Below are positions 1 through 11,692 of a DNA stretch of 11,692 bases, piece by piece (within the stretch, counting starts at the first letter, position 1; each line of letters starts with the position of its first letter). The position numbers were made by a program, and so were the translations under genes. The notes beneath the pieces were generated by a model. It searched no databases, was not told the DNA's origin, and saw only the letters and a program-made list of their open reading frames with translations. The DNA comes from a virus (taxonomy: Duplodnaviria > Heunggongvirae > Uroviricota > Caudoviricetes), in IMG/VR virus record IMGVR_UViG_2711768036_000001; one strand, given 5' to 3'.

Positions 1-1125
1 TGTTTCATTGCGAGAAATACCCGCGTAAAAAAAGGACTCATGCCTGTGCGCTTCAAAAGAGTCATCCTGAAGACTTAGCAAGGCACGTCCCGCATCCACT
101 CCACGCCCGTCATCCCAGCCACGAATAAACTCACCACGTAAATCAGGCAATTTATTTGTCGGATAAGCCTTTGCCAGTTCCGGGTATTCTTCAGCAGAAA
201 AAGCGGCACCGTTGCATTTCAGCCAGCCTGTTGGCGGAGTGGCTGAAGGCCACGGAACAGGCACCCCAATCGGTAATGCAGAGCCTTCTCCCAAACCAAG
301 GTATGCGAGAAGACCGGCAACATCCTTTCCACTCAAATGAGTCAGCGTATTGTCCAGCGGTTGTTTACCTGCCAGCGCATTGTTAATGGTGGTGCTGAAT
401 TTCGGGTCATTGTTAATGGCTGCGGCAATTTCTTTCAGTGTGTCCAGCGTGGCAGGCGCACCATTAACCAGAGCGGTAATAGCAGCCTGTACAAACGCAG
501 TGGTCGCAATCCGCGTGGTGTTATTTCCTGCATCAGGAGTCGGCGCTTTTGGTTCTCCGGTAAATGTCGGATTATGTTTCTGTGCATACTGGGTATGAGG
601 ATCCTGTGCGGCAATGTGGTTTCTCATCTGGTCATCCACATACAGCTTCAATTCCAGGACTTCATCATCCACGTATTTACGGGTCGCCAGTACCACCGAC
701 GGGTCGATTTTCAGCGTGATGGCTTCGGTATTCGTGACAACCAGAATCATGCGGATAGTCTGGGTGCGGCCACTGCCTTCCTGTAACAGCGGTTTGTACG
801 TTTCCGGGCAGTTCGCCACCGCAATGAGTACGCCTTCATCATCATAAAGCCCAATCTCACGGATCCAGAATCCGCCCTCGTTCTCAGGGATGATTTGCTC
901 CGCAATAATCTGGCTCTGGTTGTTCGGGTCAACACTCAGAAGATTCAGCGGTGCAATGCGTTTCTGATTAATCAGTTTTGTCTGTGCCGGGTCTGGTGTC
1001 GGCAAGACACCATTCGCATCACCAACGGCCATTTGCGTCAGATTCAGCTTACTGCCGAGCATCGTCGCGTTAGCCAGCCGTGCTGCGCCCTGATTAGTCA
1101 GAATGGCGTAGTATTTCACTGTCAT
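1..1125 (-). CDS. H: Tail fibre protein, N-terminal ~375 codons only (gene continues beyond window start). P2 gpH-like N-terminal anchor followed by a tail-collar-like motif.
   Basis: I reverse-complemented 1..1125 and translated it: ATG at 1125..1123 with no stop down to position 1, and a stop 6 codons upstream in the same frame. N-terminus MTVKYYAILTNQGAARLANATMLGSKLNLTQMAVGD...GGFWIREIGLYDDEGVLIAVANCPETYKPLLQEGSGR resembles the conserved N-terminal domain of P2 gpH but is diverged. Near the window edge the protein reads GWLKCNGAAFSAEEYPELAKAYP...LPDLRGEFIRGWDDGRGVD, typical of phage tail-collar fibre domains. ATGA start/stop overlap with I. Not in the ORF track because it has no stop inside the window. 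Confidence 0.85.
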   Translation of the reverse strand, partial: MTVKYYAILTNQGAARLANATMLGSKLNLTQMAVGDANGVLPTPDPAQTKLINQKRIAPLNLLSVDPNNQSQIIAEQIIPENEGGFWIREIGLYDDEGVLIAVANCPETYKPLLQEGSGRTQTIRMILVVTNTEAITLKIDPSVVLATRKYVDDEVLELKLYVDDQMRNHIAAQDPHTQYAQKHNPTFTGEPKAPTPDAGNNTTRIATTAFVQAAITALVNGAPATLDTLKEIAAAINNDPKFSTTINNALAGKQPLDNTLTHLSGKDVAGLLAYLGLGEGSALPIGVPVPWPSATPPTGWLKCNGAAFSAEEYPELAKAYPTNKLPDLRGEFIRGWDDGRGVDAGRALLSLQDDSFEAHRHESFFYAGISRNET

Positions 1126-1733
1126 GCGTTTACTCTCAGGTTATCAATTAAATGAATGGCCGAGGCCGGGAAATAATCCCCTCCGACAATAATGGCCTCC
1201 GGGGTGTAGGGATAAACCGTCAGGGCGTCGCCGTGATAGCATCCCGCACCGGCAAAAATGTTGCCGGTTGTACTTAAACTGATAGCCAGTCCCGTCAGAT
1301 GGCGGCTTGCAGGTTTTGCATCAGCAACGAGACGCTCCAGCTCCTGATACATTTCCTCGGTAATACCCTGCTCAAGCACGCCAACAACGATGCGGAACGT
1401 CCCTGGCTCCTCGTTGAGCTGCCACCACTCCCTCACCTCAATCAGATAGCCGAGCGGCTCCACCACACGGCGAATCGCACCAATAGTGCCCTTATGGCAG
1501 TGAATGAAATACGCATCGCGGATAACAGCGCGTTTGGTCGCTTCCGGCCATTTATCATCCCACCTGTCGACCGAAAATGACCACGCCAGCCACGGCAGCA
1601 GATTTGCCGGGCAGGTGTCCGGGTTCCACAGCTCACGAATACTGACCGGTGTTTTTTCAATTTCCGCACAGGCTTTTGCGGCGGCAACTTCAAGCGGTGA
1701 TGAGCCGGTCGGCAGCAGTCGCGAATCACTCAT
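1122..1733 (-). CDS. I: Baseplate assembly protein (P2 gpI-like), 203 aa
   Basis: ORF track 1122..1733. N-terminus MSDSRLLPTGSSPLEVAAAKACAEIEKTPVSIRELWNPDT recognised as P2 gpI. GGAGG lies 5 nt upstream of the ATG on the minus strand (revcomp of 1739..1743). The start overlaps the J stop and the stop overlaps the H start. Longer than P2 gpI (176 aa from memory). Confidence 0.9.
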   Translation of the reverse strand: MSDSRLLPTGSSPLEVAAAKACAEIEKTPVSIRELWNPDTCPANLLPWLAWSFSVDRWDDKWPEATKRAVIRDAYFIHCHKGTIGAIRRVVEPLGYLIEVREWWQLNEEPGTFRIVVGVLEQGITEEMYQELERLVADAKPASRHLTGLAISLSTTGNIFAGAGCYHGDALTVYPYTPEAIIVGGDYFPASAIHLIDNLRVNA

Positions 1734-2634
1734 CCGAGCCTCCGGTCACGACGCGGTATTCGGTACAGAAAGACGCCTGCGTACTGTTGAGCACGATGTC
1801 GGCCAGTGGTGCGGCCAGCTCGACACGCTGCACGCCTTCCACATGCAAAGCGGCATAAATGGCAGACAGACGGATGTCGCGCCCCAGCCGGTGCTGTGCC
1901 GTGATATACGCTTCCAGTTTTTTCACGGCGGCAGCGCGAATGGGTTCGCTTTCGGGACCAGGGTAAAGATACAGCGTGGCGTTTATCTGGTATTCAACGA
2001 TGGCGGCAGACTGCACGGTCACACGGTCAGCCACCGGCCTGACGTCCTCACCATTAAGGGCGTTACGCACCACAGCCAGCAGGTCTTCGGATGCGACACC
2101 GTTATTTTCACGTGACAGCACGGAGATGGTGACGCAGGCAGGAGACGGACTGGTAACAGAGATATCCGCGACACGCCCGTCAGCACTGCGACCATGATAC
2201 TGATAGGCACCCACCGACCCGGCGACGCTTAAACCTTCAAAGGCCTGCTGAATACGCAGACGATAATCGGTGTCAGATTCCATCACGGCCGGTGTCGGCG
2301 GGAGGGTCGAATCATCTGCCGGAGTGATAATCAGGCGCGTAGTGTTGTAATTGGCACCAATCACATCAAGGTCATTACCGGCTGCACAGGCCAGCATCAC
2401 CGCCCGTGCGGCCTCATTCACACGCTGACGCCAGATAAGCTCACGATAAGCATTTTCCTCCAGCAGTTTGACGAGAGGTTCGGATTCCAGCGTCAGGGTA
2501 CGGGCGACCGCCTCCTGCTGGTCTTCCGGGTAAAGGGAAATCAGTGTCGCCTTGCGTTCGGCAAGAATGGTTTCAAAGTCCAGCTCCTCGACCACATCCG
2601 GTGCGGGTAGCTGGTTCAGGTCGATAATCGGCAT
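1726..2634 (-). CDS. J: Baseplate assembly protein (P2 gpJ-like), 302 aa
   Basis: ORF track 1726..2634, 302 aa, same length as P2 gpJ as I recall. N-terminus MPIIDLNQLPAPDVVEELDFETILAERKA recognised. Sits between W and I as in P2. Confidence 0.92.
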   Translation of the reverse strand: MPIIDLNQLPAPDVVEELDFETILAERKATLISLYPEDQQEAVARTLTLESEPLVKLLEENAYRELIWRQRVNEAARAVMLACAAGNDLDVIGANYNTTRLIITPADDSTLPPTPAVMESDTDYRLRIQQAFEGLSVAGSVGAYQYHGRSADGRVADISVTSPSPACVTISVLSRENNGVASEDLLAVVRNALNGEDVRPVADRVTVQSAAIVEYQINATLYLYPGPESEPIRAAAVKKLEAYITAQHRLGRDIRLSAIYAALHVEGVQRVELAAPLADIVLNSTQASFCTEYRVVTGGSDE

Positions 2635-2638
2635 GGTT

Positions 2639-2986
2639 TCAACTCACAGGGATGGTTAACGAAAGTGGCTGGCCGGTGTCGTTGTGCTGGCCGGTTAACG
2701 TGACCGTCATTCGCCCGTCAAAACTGTGCTCAGTGGTGACGGATGACAGGGTGACGCGGGGTTCCCATTTCAGCACCGCCATGTAACAGGCGACCTTAAT
2801 CTGCAACTCAAGCGCCGGAGTCTGCGGCTGGTCAATCATTGACGCCAGCAACGAGCCGTAATCACGACGCATCACCCGTGAGCCGACCGGTGTGCGCAGG
2901 ATATCGCCGATACTCTGGCTGATATGCTCAAGGTCAGTGACCGTCAGGCCATCACTGCGATTCATTCCGAGATAACGCGCTGTCAT
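2639..2986 (-). CDS. W: Baseplate wedge protein (P2 gpW-like, T4 gp25-like fold), 115 aa
   Basis: ORF track 2639..2986, 115 aa matching P2 gpW. N-terminus MTARYLGMNRSDGLTVTDLEHISQSIGDIL recognised. The start overlaps the V stop (ATGA at 2983..2986). Confidence 0.92.
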   Translation of the reverse strand: MTARYLGMNRSDGLTVTDLEHISQSIGDILRTPVGSRVMRRDYGSLLASMIDQPQTPALELQIKVACYMAVLKWEPRVTLSSVTTEHSFDGRMTVTLTGQHNDTGQPLSLTIPVS

Positions 2987-3618
2987 AAAGGACTCCCGGT
3001 TGTGCCGCCGCTGTCGCCGGGGTGTTTGTGGGTATGCAGTACCTTACCGTTTGAGGAGAGTTCACCGCCGGTGTGTTCAATGTTGCCGCGCATCGTCCCG
3101 CCCTTCTGCACTTCCAGCGTGCCGGTAATCAGCCTGTTGGTGCAGACCACCTCCGGTGTGTCCAGGGTAACGCGGGTTGATGCTTTCACCGTGACCACCG
3201 GCACCGTGGCAGTAACAGAATCAGAAGCCGTCACGCTGGCCGTTTTAATTCCGCTTACCGTGAGTGCGCTGGTTTCGGGTTCATACTCAATCACCGCCCC
3301 GTCAGGGAAACGGATATGCAGGGCATCCGCCGACGCAGACGGCGCGGGGTTATCACCGGAATAAATCCCCGGCAGAACGAACGCCGTGTCGAGTTCACCG
3401 CCCACGGCCAGAATCAGCACCTGTTCCCCCTCGGAAGGTGCCCACCACGTGCGCGAACGTCCGGCGCGATGGGTCAGCCACTGAAGCCAGTCGGTGCACA
3501 TGCCGCCGGTCTGCACACGGCAGCGACCGGCGTTAAGGTCGGTTTCGACGACAAGGCCGGTGCGAATCATGTTGCGCAGTGCGCGCGCGAGTTCCTGAAT
3601 ATTTGCGAGAGTGTTCAT
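2983..3618 (-). CDS. V: Baseplate central spike protein (P2 gpV-like), 211 aa
   Basis: ORF track 2983..3618, 211 aa matching P2 gpV. N-terminus MNTLANIQELARALRNMIRTGLVVETD recognised. First gene after the S-V intergenic gap. Confidence 0.92.
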   Translation of the reverse strand: MNTLANIQELARALRNMIRTGLVVETDLNAGRCRVQTGGMCTDWLQWLTHRAGRSRTWWAPSEGEQVLILAVGGELDTAFVLPGIYSGDNPAPSASADALHIRFPDGAVIEYEPETSALTVSGIKTASVTASDSVTATVPVVTVKASTRVTLDTPEVVCTNRLITGTLEVQKGGTMRGNIEHTGGELSSNGKVLHTHKHPGDSGGTTGSPL

Positions 3619-3684
3619 AACGGGAAGGATGCCGCCGGGTCATACCGGCGGCAATGTGACGATGAGGTGTCAGGAATGGCACAA
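3619..3684 (-). promoter_or_regulatory. S-V intergenic region; expected position of a P2-type late promoter for V-W-J-I-H (P_V), assigned by synteny only
   Basis: 66-nt gap between the S stop and the V start, which in P2 carries the activator-dependent late promoter P_V. Seen in the sequence: an 8-bp GC-rich inverted repeat gccgccgg/ccggcggc at 3631..3638 and 3645..3652 (6-nt loop), and TGT-N10-ACA at 3668..3683. No exact TGT-N12-ACA found. Confidence 0.3.
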
Positions 3685-4137
3685 CTAACGGTCGAGGTGA
3701 GCCAGGATAATCTCTTCAATCATCTGCACATCCTCACTGGTAAAGCCGAGCAGAGGACGCGCCGGATAATCAATTTTCTTACCGTCTTTCCGGTTTTCTT
3801 CCGACAGACCGAACTGATGCACGCTGGCGATTTTCGGTGACTTCCCGCCGTAAAACTCCATTGATGCCTGTTCCGGGCTGGCGCGGATATGCAAAAAACG
3901 ACTGGTGATAAGTTTCGCAAACATTTTTCGCTTAACACGACCAGTCTTTTTTCTGGCGCTCTGCTGCTGGCGTGGCGCGTAGGGTGTGCCGTCCGGGGCT
4001 TTCTGAGCCATCACCCGACGCTGCTGACTCTGCCGCAGACGTTTCGCCAGTTCGGCGCTCAGTCGCCGACGCCCTGACGGTGACAGCGATTCAATCAGTC
4101 CGGTCAGCCGGTCTTCAAAACGCTTAAACTCATTCAT
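3685..4137 (-). CDS. S: Tail completion protein (P2 gpS-like), 150 aa
   Basis: ORF track 3685..4137, 150 aa matching P2 gpS. N-terminus MNEFKRFEDRLTGLIESLSPSGRRRLSAELAKRL recognised. The start overlaps the R stop by 8 nt. Confidence 0.92.
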   Translation of the reverse strand: MNEFKRFEDRLTGLIESLSPSGRRRLSAELAKRLRQSQQRRVMAQKAPDGTPYAPRQQQSARKKTGRVKRKMFAKLITSRFLHIRASPEQASMEFYGGKSPKIASVHQFGLSEENRKDGKKIDYPARPLLGFTSEDVQMIEEIILAHLDR

Positions 4138-9030: not shown

Positions 9031-9885
9031 TCAGCAGTTCGTCATCAGGGCGTCACCGCCACCGCCGGTGGCCTTGCTGCGGCGCTGCTGGGTCAGACTT
9101 TCGGTGTTGTCGAGACTGTTTTTCAGGCGGGTGAATGCCTGGCTGGTTTCATCCGCCCTGTCAGTCACCTCCTGCTTAAGTGCGGAAAAGGCAGTTTCCA
9201 TCTCAGCGAGTCGCTGCTCAGTGGCGCTCAGTTTTTCCTGTACATGTTCAGCAACAGCGGTCACCGCTTCATGCACGTCATTCAGACGGGCGTCATCGCT
9301 GGCCTGTTTGCGGCCAAAAATGGATTTCACCTTTTCGGTCAGGGCGGTGAACACGGTTTCAGGCAGGTCTTCAAATTCCAGCTCAACAGGCGTTGCCACT
9401 GAAATCAGGTTTTCAGGGCTTAATTTGAAGCGGTTCAGGGGGTTGTGTTTTGCCGTGCGGCAGAATTCCAGATATTCCGTGCCGAGGCTTGCCGGGTCAT
9501 CGGTGACGGCCAGCCCCACCAGATAACATTTGCCGGTGTTGGCAAAGTTCGGCTGGATTTCCATTGAGGTATAGACCTTCTGCGCGGCCTTGTTCATCGC
9601 GATAAGGTCATCGGTCGGGGTGATTTTCGCAAACAGCGCCCATTTGCCTTTCAGCGCCGAATCATCGTCAATCTTTTCGGCCTTCAGTTCGGCCACATCG
9701 CCATAACGCTTAAAAATACCGTCAGGCAGGATGCCGCGCAGATGTTCCAGGTTAATACGGCAACCATAGACACGCGGGTCAAAGGTTTCGGCCATTTCCT
9801 GAATATCCTGCGCACTGATGACACGCCCGTCACAGGTGTCACCCTCAACGCCGATACGAAAGAATTTTGAGACTTTTTTTGCCAT
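9031..9885 (-). CDS. O: Capsid scaffolding protein (P2 gpO-like), 284 aa
   Basis: ORF track lists 9031..9951 (306 aa). The conserved P2 gpO N-terminus MAKKVSKFFRIGVEGDTCDGRVISAQDIQEMAETFDP starts at the Met at 9885 (cat at 9883..9885). 284 aa matches P2 gpO. An AGGA lies upstream on the minus strand. Confidence 0.9.
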   Translation of the reverse strand: MAKKVSKFFRIGVEGDTCDGRVISAQDIQEMAETFDPRVYGCRINLEHLRGILPDGIFKRYGDVAELKAEKIDDDSALKGKWALFAKITPTDDLIAMNKAAQKVYTSMEIQPNFANTGKCYLVGLAVTDDPASLGTEYLEFCRTAKHNPLNRFKLSPENLISVATPVELEFEDLPETVFTALTEKVKSIFGRKQASDDARLNDVHEAVTAVAEHVQEKLSATEQRLAEMETAFSALKQEVTDRADETSQAFTRLKNSLDNTESLTQQRRSKATGGGGDALMTNC

Positions 9886-10058
9886 TGTCAGGAGTCCTGA
9901 ATAGTGATTAGAGGAGTCACATGTCGGCATCAGTTTCCCGACGATGCGCATCCTCCGCCATCAGTCCCGGATGGCTTATCACTGACACAACAGCACCTTA
10001 GCGAATCGCGGGACGCGACTCAGTAGCCTTGCCGTGTATTCATCACGGCGAGGTATTC
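9886..10058. promoter_or_regulatory. Divergent O/P intergenic control region; expected site of the back-to-back late promoters (P_O leftward, P_P rightward), assigned by synteny
   Basis: 173-nt non-coding gap between the divergently oriented O (minus) and P (plus) starts. In P2 the equivalent gap holds the two activator-dependent late promoters. Seen in the sequence: TGG-N12-ACA at 9972..9989 (a 5/6 match to the TGT-N12-ACA dyad I recall for P2 late promoters, centred about 78 nt upstream of the P ATG), inverted repeat tcagt-N15-actga at 9961..9985, and an imperfect dyad tgtcgg-N10-ccgacg at 9922..9943. Confidence 0.5.
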
Positions 10059-11692
10059 ATGACCATCACCACAGACACCACTCTTTTACACGACCCGCGT
10101 CGTCAGGCGGCGCTGCTGTACTGGCAGGGATTTTCCGTGCCGCAGATTGCCGCCATGTTGCAGATGAAACGCCCGACGGTGCAGAGCTGGAAACAGCGCG
10201 ACGGCTGGGACAGCGTTGCCCCCATCAGCCGTGTCGAAATGAGTCTGGAAGCGCGGCTGACCCAGCTCATCATCAAACCGCAGAAAACCGGCGGTGACTT
10301 CAAGGAAATTGACCTGCTGGGACGCCAGATTGAACGACTGGCACGGGTAAACCGCTACAGTCAGACCGGCAACGAGGCAGACCTTAATCCAAACGTCGCT
10401 AACCGCAACAAAGGCGGGCGTCGCAAACCGAAAAAGAATTTTTTCAGTGACGAGGCCATCGAAAAGCTGGAGCAGATTTTCTTTGAGCAGTCTTTCGACT
10501 ATCAGTTGCACTGGTATCGCGCCGGGCTTGAGCACCGCATCCGCGATATCCTGAAATCCCGCCAGATTGGCGCGACGTTTTATTTTTCCCGCGAGGCGCT
10601 GCTGCGCGCCCTGAAAACCGGCCATAACCAGATTTTTCTGTCGGCCAGTAAAACGCAGGCGTATGTGTTCCGCGAATACATCATCGCCTTTGCCCGTCTG
10701 GTTGACGTTGACCTGACCGGTGACCCGATTGTCCTGGGCAATAACGGCGCAAAACTGATTTTTCTCGGCACCAACTCCAACACCGCACAGAGCCATAACG
10801 GCGACCTGTACGTCGACGAGATTTTCTGGATCCCGAATTTTCAGGTACTGCGTAAGGTGGCATCAGGTATGGCCTCACAGAGCCACCTGCGTTCGACCTA
10901 TTTCTCCACCCCGTCCACGCTGGCGCACGACGCCTACCCGTTCTGGTCGGGTGAACTGTTCAACCGGGGACGCGCCAGCGCCGCCGAACGCGTGGAAATC
11001 GACGTCAGTCATAACGCCCTTGCCGGTGGGCTTCTCTGTGCGGACGGCCAGTGGCGGCAGATTGTCACCATTGAGGATGCCCTGAAAGGCGGCTGCACGC
11101 TGTTCGACATTGAGCAGCTCAAACGCGAAAACAGCGCCGACGATTTTAAAAACCTGTTCATGTGTGAATTTGTTGACGACAAGGCGTCGGTGTTCCCGTT
11201 CGAGGAGCTGCAACGCTGCATGGTCGACACGCTGGAAGAATGGGAAGACTATGCGCCGTTTGCCGCGAATCCGTTCGGCTCCCGCCCGGTATGGATTGGT
11301 TACGACCCGTCACACCGTGGCGACAGCGCCGGATGCGTGGTACTGGCACCGCCGGTGGTGGCCGGTGGCAAATTCAGAATACTTGAGCGTCACCAGTGGA
11401 AAGGCATGGACTTTGCCACTCAGGCTGAATCCATCCGCAAACTCACCGAGAAATACAACGTCGAATACATCGGTATTGATGCCACCGGCCTCGGTGTCGG
11501 CGTGTTCCAGCTCGTGCGCTCGTTCTATCCCGCCGCACGCGACATCCGCTACACGCCGGAAATGAAAACCGCAATGGTGCTCAAGGCCAAAGACGTTATC
11601 CGCCGTGGCTGTCTGGAATATGACGTCAGCGCCACCGACATCACCAGCTCGTTTATGGCTATCCGCAAGACCATGACCAGCAGCGGACGCAG
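10059..11692 (+). CDS. P: Terminase large (ATPase) subunit (P2 gpP-like), N-terminal ~544 of ~590 codons (runs off window end)
   Basis: ATG at 10059..10061 preceded by GAGG at 10050..10053. The frame stays open to the window end (continuous with the P2 gpP-like sequence; absent from the ORF track because it has no stop in the window). N-terminus MTITTDTTLLHDPRRQAALLYWQGFSVPQIAAMLQMKRPTVQSWKQRDGWDS recognised as P2 gpP. Divergent from O as in P2. Confidence 0.93.
   Translation, partial: MTITTDTTLLHDPRRQAALLYWQGFSVPQIAAMLQMKRPTVQSWKQRDGWDSVAPISRVEMSLEARLTQLIIKPQKTGGDFKEIDLLGRQIERLARVNRYSQTGNEADLNPNVANRNKGGRRKPKKNFFSDEAIEKLEQIFFEQSFDYQLHWYRAGLEHRIRDILKSRQIGATFYFSREALLRALKTGHNQIFLSASKTQAYVFREYIIAFARLVDVDLTGDPIVLGNNGAKLIFLGTNSNTAQSHNGDLYVDEIFWIPNFQVLRKVASGMASQSHLRSTYFSTPSTLAHDAYPFWSGELFNRGRASAAERVEIDVSHNALAGGLLCADGQWRQIVTIEDALKGGCTLFDIEQLKRENSADDFKNLFMCEFVDDKASVFPFEELQRCMVDTLEEWEDYAPFAANPFGSRPVWIGYDPSHRGDSAGCVVLAPPVVAGGKFRILERHQWKGMDFATQAESIRKLTEKYNVEYIGIDATGLGVGVFQLVRSFYPAARDIRYTPEMKTAMVLKAKDVIRRGCLEYDVSATDITSSFMAIRKTMTSSGR

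Follow-up and report, generated by a model that had tools for sequence, protein, structure and literature searches.

Where does the activator bind? A probable single, degenerate site in the divergent pO/pP late region of a P2-type phage

The DNA analyzed here, hereafter the window, is a stretch of 11,692 nucleotides of a Caudoviricetes virus (IMG/VR record IMGVR_UViG_2711768036_000001). Between two divergently transcribed genes, it contains a gap in which back-to-back late promoters dependent on an Ogr-type zinc-finger factor, or on a satellite-phage delta-type transactivator, are expected, and in which the dyad taken to mark such promoters, TGT-N12-ACA, could not be found in exact form. The locus thus raises the question of whether the activator site is degenerate or the assumed consensus is inexact. 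Both alternatives, offered in the original prediction, hold: no annotated late-promoter site of P2 is an exact match, and the apparent puzzle arose because an idealized consensus was used as an exact pattern. Here, we report an analysis of this gap, which we consider, with a probability of about 0.9, to be the divergent pO/pP late region of a P2-type phage, with one degenerate site for an Ogr-family or delta activator located midway and serving both promoters. This is the P2 pO/pP control region of the textbooks, already known and documented as such, so that the significance of the result extends little beyond correct annotation.

The O/P gap and its counterpart in phage P2

The window represents the morphogenetic (late) part of a P2-type phage genome, reversed relative to the P2 map; it corresponds approximately to P2 1360..13840 with orf30 missing, and is collinear with P2-like phages. 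Late operons of this phage type flank the gap on both sides. On the minus strand, the capsid scaffold/protease gene, gpO (9031..9885; Pfam Phage_GPO, E 6e-110; equivalent to P2 CDS O, 3167..4021), opens the O late operon. On the plus strand, the large terminase gene, gpP (10059..11692, running off the window; Pfam Terminase_5, Terminase_6N, and Terminase_6C; equivalent to P2 CDS P), opens the P-Q late operon. By the position of the two start codons (gpO, the reverse complement of 9883..9885; gpP, 10059..10061), the limits originally assigned to the gap, 9886..10058, are correct. The 801 bases around it (9600..10400) share 99.0% identity with P2 (AF063097) and as much as 99.3% with dozens of other P2-like phages. 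For the whole window, the best among the matches listed is a Salmonella phage record, at 97.7%, and P2 is not among these matches. Given the location of ogr at P2 24036, the activator gene lies outside the window.

Within the gap, 172 of the 173 bases are identical to P2 AF063097, with no insertions or deletions, and a gap-free alignment over 9870..10075 was used to map the P2 features onto the window. The sole difference in the gap, A at position 10013 where P2 has G, falls at -23 of pP, in the spacer, in a column that carries 0.25 bit and is not conserved in relatives. Mapped in this manner, the pO transcription start of the O operon (misc_feature 3127) lies at 9925 on the minus strand, the pP start of the P operon (misc_feature 3016) at 10036 on the plus strand, and the Ogr-binding region common to both, annotated as “activator binding site; pO, pP promoters” (misc_feature 3057..3087), at 9965..9995; for the activator site and both starts, the source is GenBank annotation together with secondary citations. 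The P2 record therefore places two divergent Ogr-type late promoters inside the gap, as had been expected, and both annotated transcript starts map between 9886 and 10058. The expectation of one activator site per promoter did not survive, because the records of both P2 and phage 186 annotate a single shared site.

A pattern scan corroborated the absence of an exact TGT-N12-ACA from the gap, and a one-mismatch scan likewise identified TGG-N12-ACA at 9972..9989 as the nearest match, the only other one-mismatch match in the gap being TGT-N12-ATA at 9886..9903. The imperfect hyphenated dyad at 9972..9989 fits 5 of the 6 specified bases and reads TGT-N12-CCA towards O. Across the entire window, 47 one-mismatch matches were observed against 51.8 expected. 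Such matches occurring at chance frequency, the pattern match alone is without statistical weight, and the dyad is weak in the window sequence itself, with 6 of 13 mirrored pairs complementary. The case for 9972..9989 is made by its position, by the P2 and 186 annotations, and by conservation, not by the pattern.

As for position, the dyad lies inside the annotated binding region 9965..9995, and its center, 9980.5, is the exact midpoint of the mapped starts at 9925 and 10036. These starts are 111 bp apart, the same distance as in P2, which places the center at -55.5 from each of them, in agreement with the center at about -55 that characterizes this promoter class. With equal base frequencies, a match this close (one mismatch or none) would fall on any single chosen position with probability 19/4096. 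The pO -10 hexamer GAAACT (9932..9937, minus strand; the reverse complement of AGTTTC, with AGT[T/A]TC in relatives) and the pP -10 hexamer TAGCCT (10024..10029, plus strand; TAGCCTT(G) does not vary across the aligned relatives) both occupy -12..-7 of their annotated starts, about 43.5 bp from the dyad center. A consensus scan found no complete sigma-70 promoter at either the pO or the pP start; the combination of -10 hexamers with the lack of a complete sigma-70 promoter fits activator-dependent promoters. In the -35 region of pO (about -32..-37) lies a conserved GCCAYC (9957..9962; GRTGGC towards O, on the minus strand), and its mirror-image counterpart on the plus strand is a conserved TTAGCG at 9998..10003, at -38..-33 of pP. 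Compared by eye, ATGGC in the -35 region of pO is in the same register as ATAGC of the P2 promoters pF and pV.

Conservation of the site and the late-promoter consensus

Scanning of one genome per species yielded 41 loci, with gpO 57-99% identical to that of the window. Position-specific counts were made over 41 distinct O/P gaps (40 relatives and the window) aligned on an anchor; for one locus (L029), the anchor is an earlier ACATCAG, and another (L040) has none, so that the numbers are slightly blurred, with the conclusions unaffected. The alignment with P2, 186, and these relatives puts the conserved site inside the gap and not in the O or P coding sequence, which agrees with the original prediction, and both the site and its geometry are kept across the 41 distinct gaps. 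Gap length ranges from 131 to 176 bp. Despite leaders that vary widely in length, most relatives have 92 bp from one -10 element to the other, and a Pectobacterium/Brenneria group has 93-94 bp.

The ACA half of the dyad is kept in all 41 gaps, and CACAACAG is nearly invariant. The nearly invariant P-proximal half-site as a whole, ACACAACAG (CTGTTGTGT towards O), spans 9985..9993; within it, positions 9987, 9988, 9989, 9991, and 9992 are invariant, and 9986, 9990, and 9993 carry the same base in 38 to 39 of 41 gaps. The left half, TGG, is moderately conserved (T in 31/41, G in 28/41, G in 34/41), and TGG-N12-ACA is the commonest form, found in 21 of the 41 distinct gaps. An exact TGT-N12-ACA occurs in none of the 41, neither at the homologous position nor elsewhere in the gap. 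Conservation is accordingly lopsided, strongly towards the ACAACAG half of the dyad, at about 2 bits per position in the right half and about 1 bit in the left.

Positions that mirror each other across 9980.5 can pair in 42% of cells, a figure that drops to 16-32% if the partner is displaced by 1 to 3 bases, and the conserved left-half bases C9968, G9970, T9972, G9973, and A9978 mostly complement the right half about the same center. Together, the fixed -10 spacing, the mirrored complementarity, and the complementing left-half bases are the signature of one geometrically constrained central site. Outside the right half-site, conserved blocks comprise AGTTTCC at 9932..9938 (the pO -10 element), GCCAYC at about 9957..9962, CGG at 9968..9970, TTAGCG (with T9998, T9999, A10000, and G10003 each unchanged in 39 to 40 of the 41 gaps), and TAGCCTTGCC at 10024..10033, which takes in the pP -10 element and stops shortly ahead of the start.

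The annotated late-promoter sites of P2 itself illustrate how loosely the consensus is followed. The pF site, TGT GCTGTCGATTAG CCA, is an inexact TGT-N12-CCA, and the pV site is an inexact TGT-N12-CAA; exact TGT-N12-ACA occurs five times in the P2 genome, never inside an annotated activator site. The P2 pO/pP region has the same flanking genes, O and P, the same -10 hexamers, and the same TGG-N12-ACA as the window (AF063097). In phage 186, the divergent scaffold and terminase promoters pV and p12, which are homologous to pO and pP, are recorded with a single site for the B protein, TGGACAACCGCCCACACAAC (U32222, protein_bind 3798..3817; “activation of pV and p12 promoters”), that is, TGG-N12-ACA followed by ACAG. 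The TTAGCG and TAGCCTTGCC blocks of 186 are the same as in the window, whereas the dyad spacer and most of the O-side sequence differ, the gap measures 165 bp rather than 173, and the activator is B rather than Ogr. For the distant P2-like phage Smp131, PP' and PO' have likewise been assigned one and the same 18-bp site (PMC3931495).

The late promoters Psid and PLL of the satellite phage P4 are activated by delta or Ogr and share with the window the activator family and the hyphenated dyad motif. The P4 late-promoter dyad is centered near -55. Exact TGT-N12-ACA is present in P4 at 9133, 9493, and 9531, in the late-promoter region between ORF88 and sid. With exact copies in P4 and none at the annotated P2 late-promoter sites, the textbook consensus fits P4 better than P2. 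TGT-N12-ACA is an idealization, and its exact form is no requirement. A scan for the exact form misses the annotated P2 late-promoter sites as well as the 186 pV/p12 site; a better detector would combine three features, namely, the CACAACAG / CTGTTGTG half, which hardly varies, a weak partner at a distance of 15 bp, and a -10 element at a fixed distance of about 43.5 bp from the dyad center.

Proposed activation from one site, and alternative readings

Ogr is a small zinc-binding protein that targets conserved inverted repeats whose midpoints lie at about -55 in P2 late promoters and that must make contact with the host RNA polymerase's alpha subunit (PMC3152322). By analogy, the activator of the window, either a small Ogr-family zinc-finger protein or a satellite-phage delta, encoded outside the window, would bind the single site at 9972..9989, at -55.5 from each start, and would recruit the host RNA polymerase via its alpha subunit to two promoters that have no usable -35 element. 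Transcription from pO would then proceed leftward from 9925 through genes O to S, and transcription from pP rightward from 10036 through genes P and Q, with one bound activator presumably serving both directions, either simultaneously or alternately. The identity to P2, the mapped annotation, the geometry, and the conservation come from the present analysis, and the binding, the starts, and the alpha contact from annotation and literature. In particular, that one of the proteins Ogr, B, and delta binds here, and that transcription depends on the activator and on the C-terminal domain of the polymerase alpha subunit, are predictions drawn from the P2 and 186 GenBank annotations and PMC3152322.

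It is unlikely that the gap holds additional sites beyond this one, such as an operator for a second factor formed by GTCGG/CCGAC or an alternative activator dyad formed by tcagt-N15-actga. Both elements (tgtcgg-N10-ccgacg at 9922..9943 and tcagt-N15-actga at 9961..9985) are present in the sequence, as described originally, and as activator sites, both are unsupported. The former pairs at only 5 of 6 positions, its GTCGG/CCGAC arms (9923..9927 and 9938..9942) bracketing the pO -10 element and start. Complementarity across relatives, at 66% of cells compared with at most 40% when the partner is shifted, and retention of all five pairs in 13 of 41 gaps speak for such an operator; however, there is almost no compensatory change (2 A-T cells), and the overlap with the conserved -10 element and start alone can explain the conservation. 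An RNA hairpin of these arms is impossible because the pO transcript includes just three bases (9923..9925) of the arm at 9923..9927 and none of the other arm. The tcagt-N15-actga element is kept only in the 4 gaps identical to P2, and its 35% complementarity is close to the 37% of the shifted control; we treat it as a chance occurrence.

Two further inverted repeats were considered and rejected. GCCATC/GATGGC (9957..9975) is conserved in sequence, with essentially no compensatory change, and the overlap with promoter elements explains its conservation. The repeat 10027..10036 / 10044..10053 can form no hairpin in the pP transcript, its 5' arm lying upstream of the start. An RNA-level role was also considered: a search of Rfam gave no matches, and the predicted folding of the two 5' leaders is no better than that of shuffled sequence (z -1.0 and -0.76).

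We regard as quite improbable the possibility that the two promoters rely on separate recognition events, each with its own register or half-site, instead of on one shared dyad. Such an arrangement could arise, for example, if the overlapping ACACA, which provides ACA at both 9985 and 9987, were used in two registers, or if the invariant CACAACAG half were the only true element, in opposite orientations for pO and pP. The very asymmetric conservation of the halves would be accommodated by this reading, as would two differences between the promoters: when aligned on TGT and compared by eye, pP has its TAGC-type -35-region motif 2 bases nearer the dyad than pO, pF, and pV, and the TTGT half that is distal in these three promoters is proximal in pP. 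Nevertheless, the records of P2 and 186 each give a single site for both promoters, the conserved left-half bases mostly complement the right half about 9980.5, and the geometry about this point is exactly symmetric and conserved, all of which argue for the shared site.

Under the shared-site reading, the unequal conservation of the half-sites may itself be functional. The strong TTGT half is promoter-distal in pO, pF, and pV and promoter-proximal only in pP, and we suggest, tentatively and as one of the less probable options, that the shared site is directional and that the O and P-Q operons are tuned to different strengths. If this were the case, a single bound activator would give the O (capsid) operon, which is in high demand, and the P-Q (terminase, portal) operon, which is in low demand, different, evolutionarily tuned strengths.

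The notion that the activator really binds at another place, such as the P coding sequence or the exact TGT-N12-ACA at 9239..9256 in the O gene, can be practically dismissed, given that this sole exact match in the entire window compares with 2.9 expected by chance and is situated downstream of the pO start by 669 to 686 bp, that the annotated site and both starts are in the gap, and that the exact matches in P2 itself coincide with none of its annotated activator sites; we attribute the match at 9239..9256 to chance.

Other elements in the window and its relatives

The gap had originally been considered the regulatory node for the whole window. This view is too broad, for V, W, J, and the genes that follow them (1..3618) have a promoter of their own, pV. 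The window is without the nonessential orf30 of P2 (P2 9439..10224), and the S-V gap is only 66 bp long (3619..3684, minus strand), between the S stop at 3685 and the V ATG at 3618, with pV near 3620..3690. It holds a TGT-N12-ACC (3683..3666, minus strand), a putative activator site. The distance from this 18-mer to the V ATG is exactly 47 bases, as for the P2 pV site, and the intervening sequence is unrelated to that of P2. Between the putative site and the V ATG, there is a G+C-rich hairpin, gccgccgg-tatgac-ccggcggc, presumably the terminator of the O operon. In P2, the V transcription start is annotated at the A of the ATG, so that the V mRNA would be leaderless.

Directly upstream of the O start codon lies the palindrome TCAGGA-G-TCCTGA (9888..9900). 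In the O mRNA, it reads UCAGG-ACU-CCUGA and includes the likely ribosome-binding AGGA; in the alignment, GTCAGGAGTCCTGA is nearly invariant in most enterobacterial relatives. In the predicted fold, it appears as a small hairpin, within an O leader whose overall stability is unremarkable (z -1.0). The palindrome may act in translational control, or it may be no more than a conserved site for ribosome binding.

On the P side, a group of loci from Pectobacterium, Brenneria, and Symbiopectobacterium (L030..L034, L036..L038, and L042) have the gpP ATG about 4 bases after TAGCCTTGC (TAGCCTTGCCGTC|ATG). With the ATG so close to TAGCCTTGC and a P2-type start 7 bases past the -10 element, the P mRNA of these phages would be leaderless or nearly so, unless the start codon is located further downstream.

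The sole sigma-70 consensus match in 9800..10150, CTGACA-16-CAAAAT (9891..9864, minus strand; 0.2 expected in shuffles), spans the O start codon. Transcription from it would begin within O, so that it is probably due to chance. Finally, a direct repeat, CGGCATCAGT / CGCCATCAGT, occurs at 9925..9934 and 9956..9965, the starts of the copies being 31 bp apart; copy 1 includes the pO start together with some of the -10 element, and copy 2 includes the -35-region element of pO.
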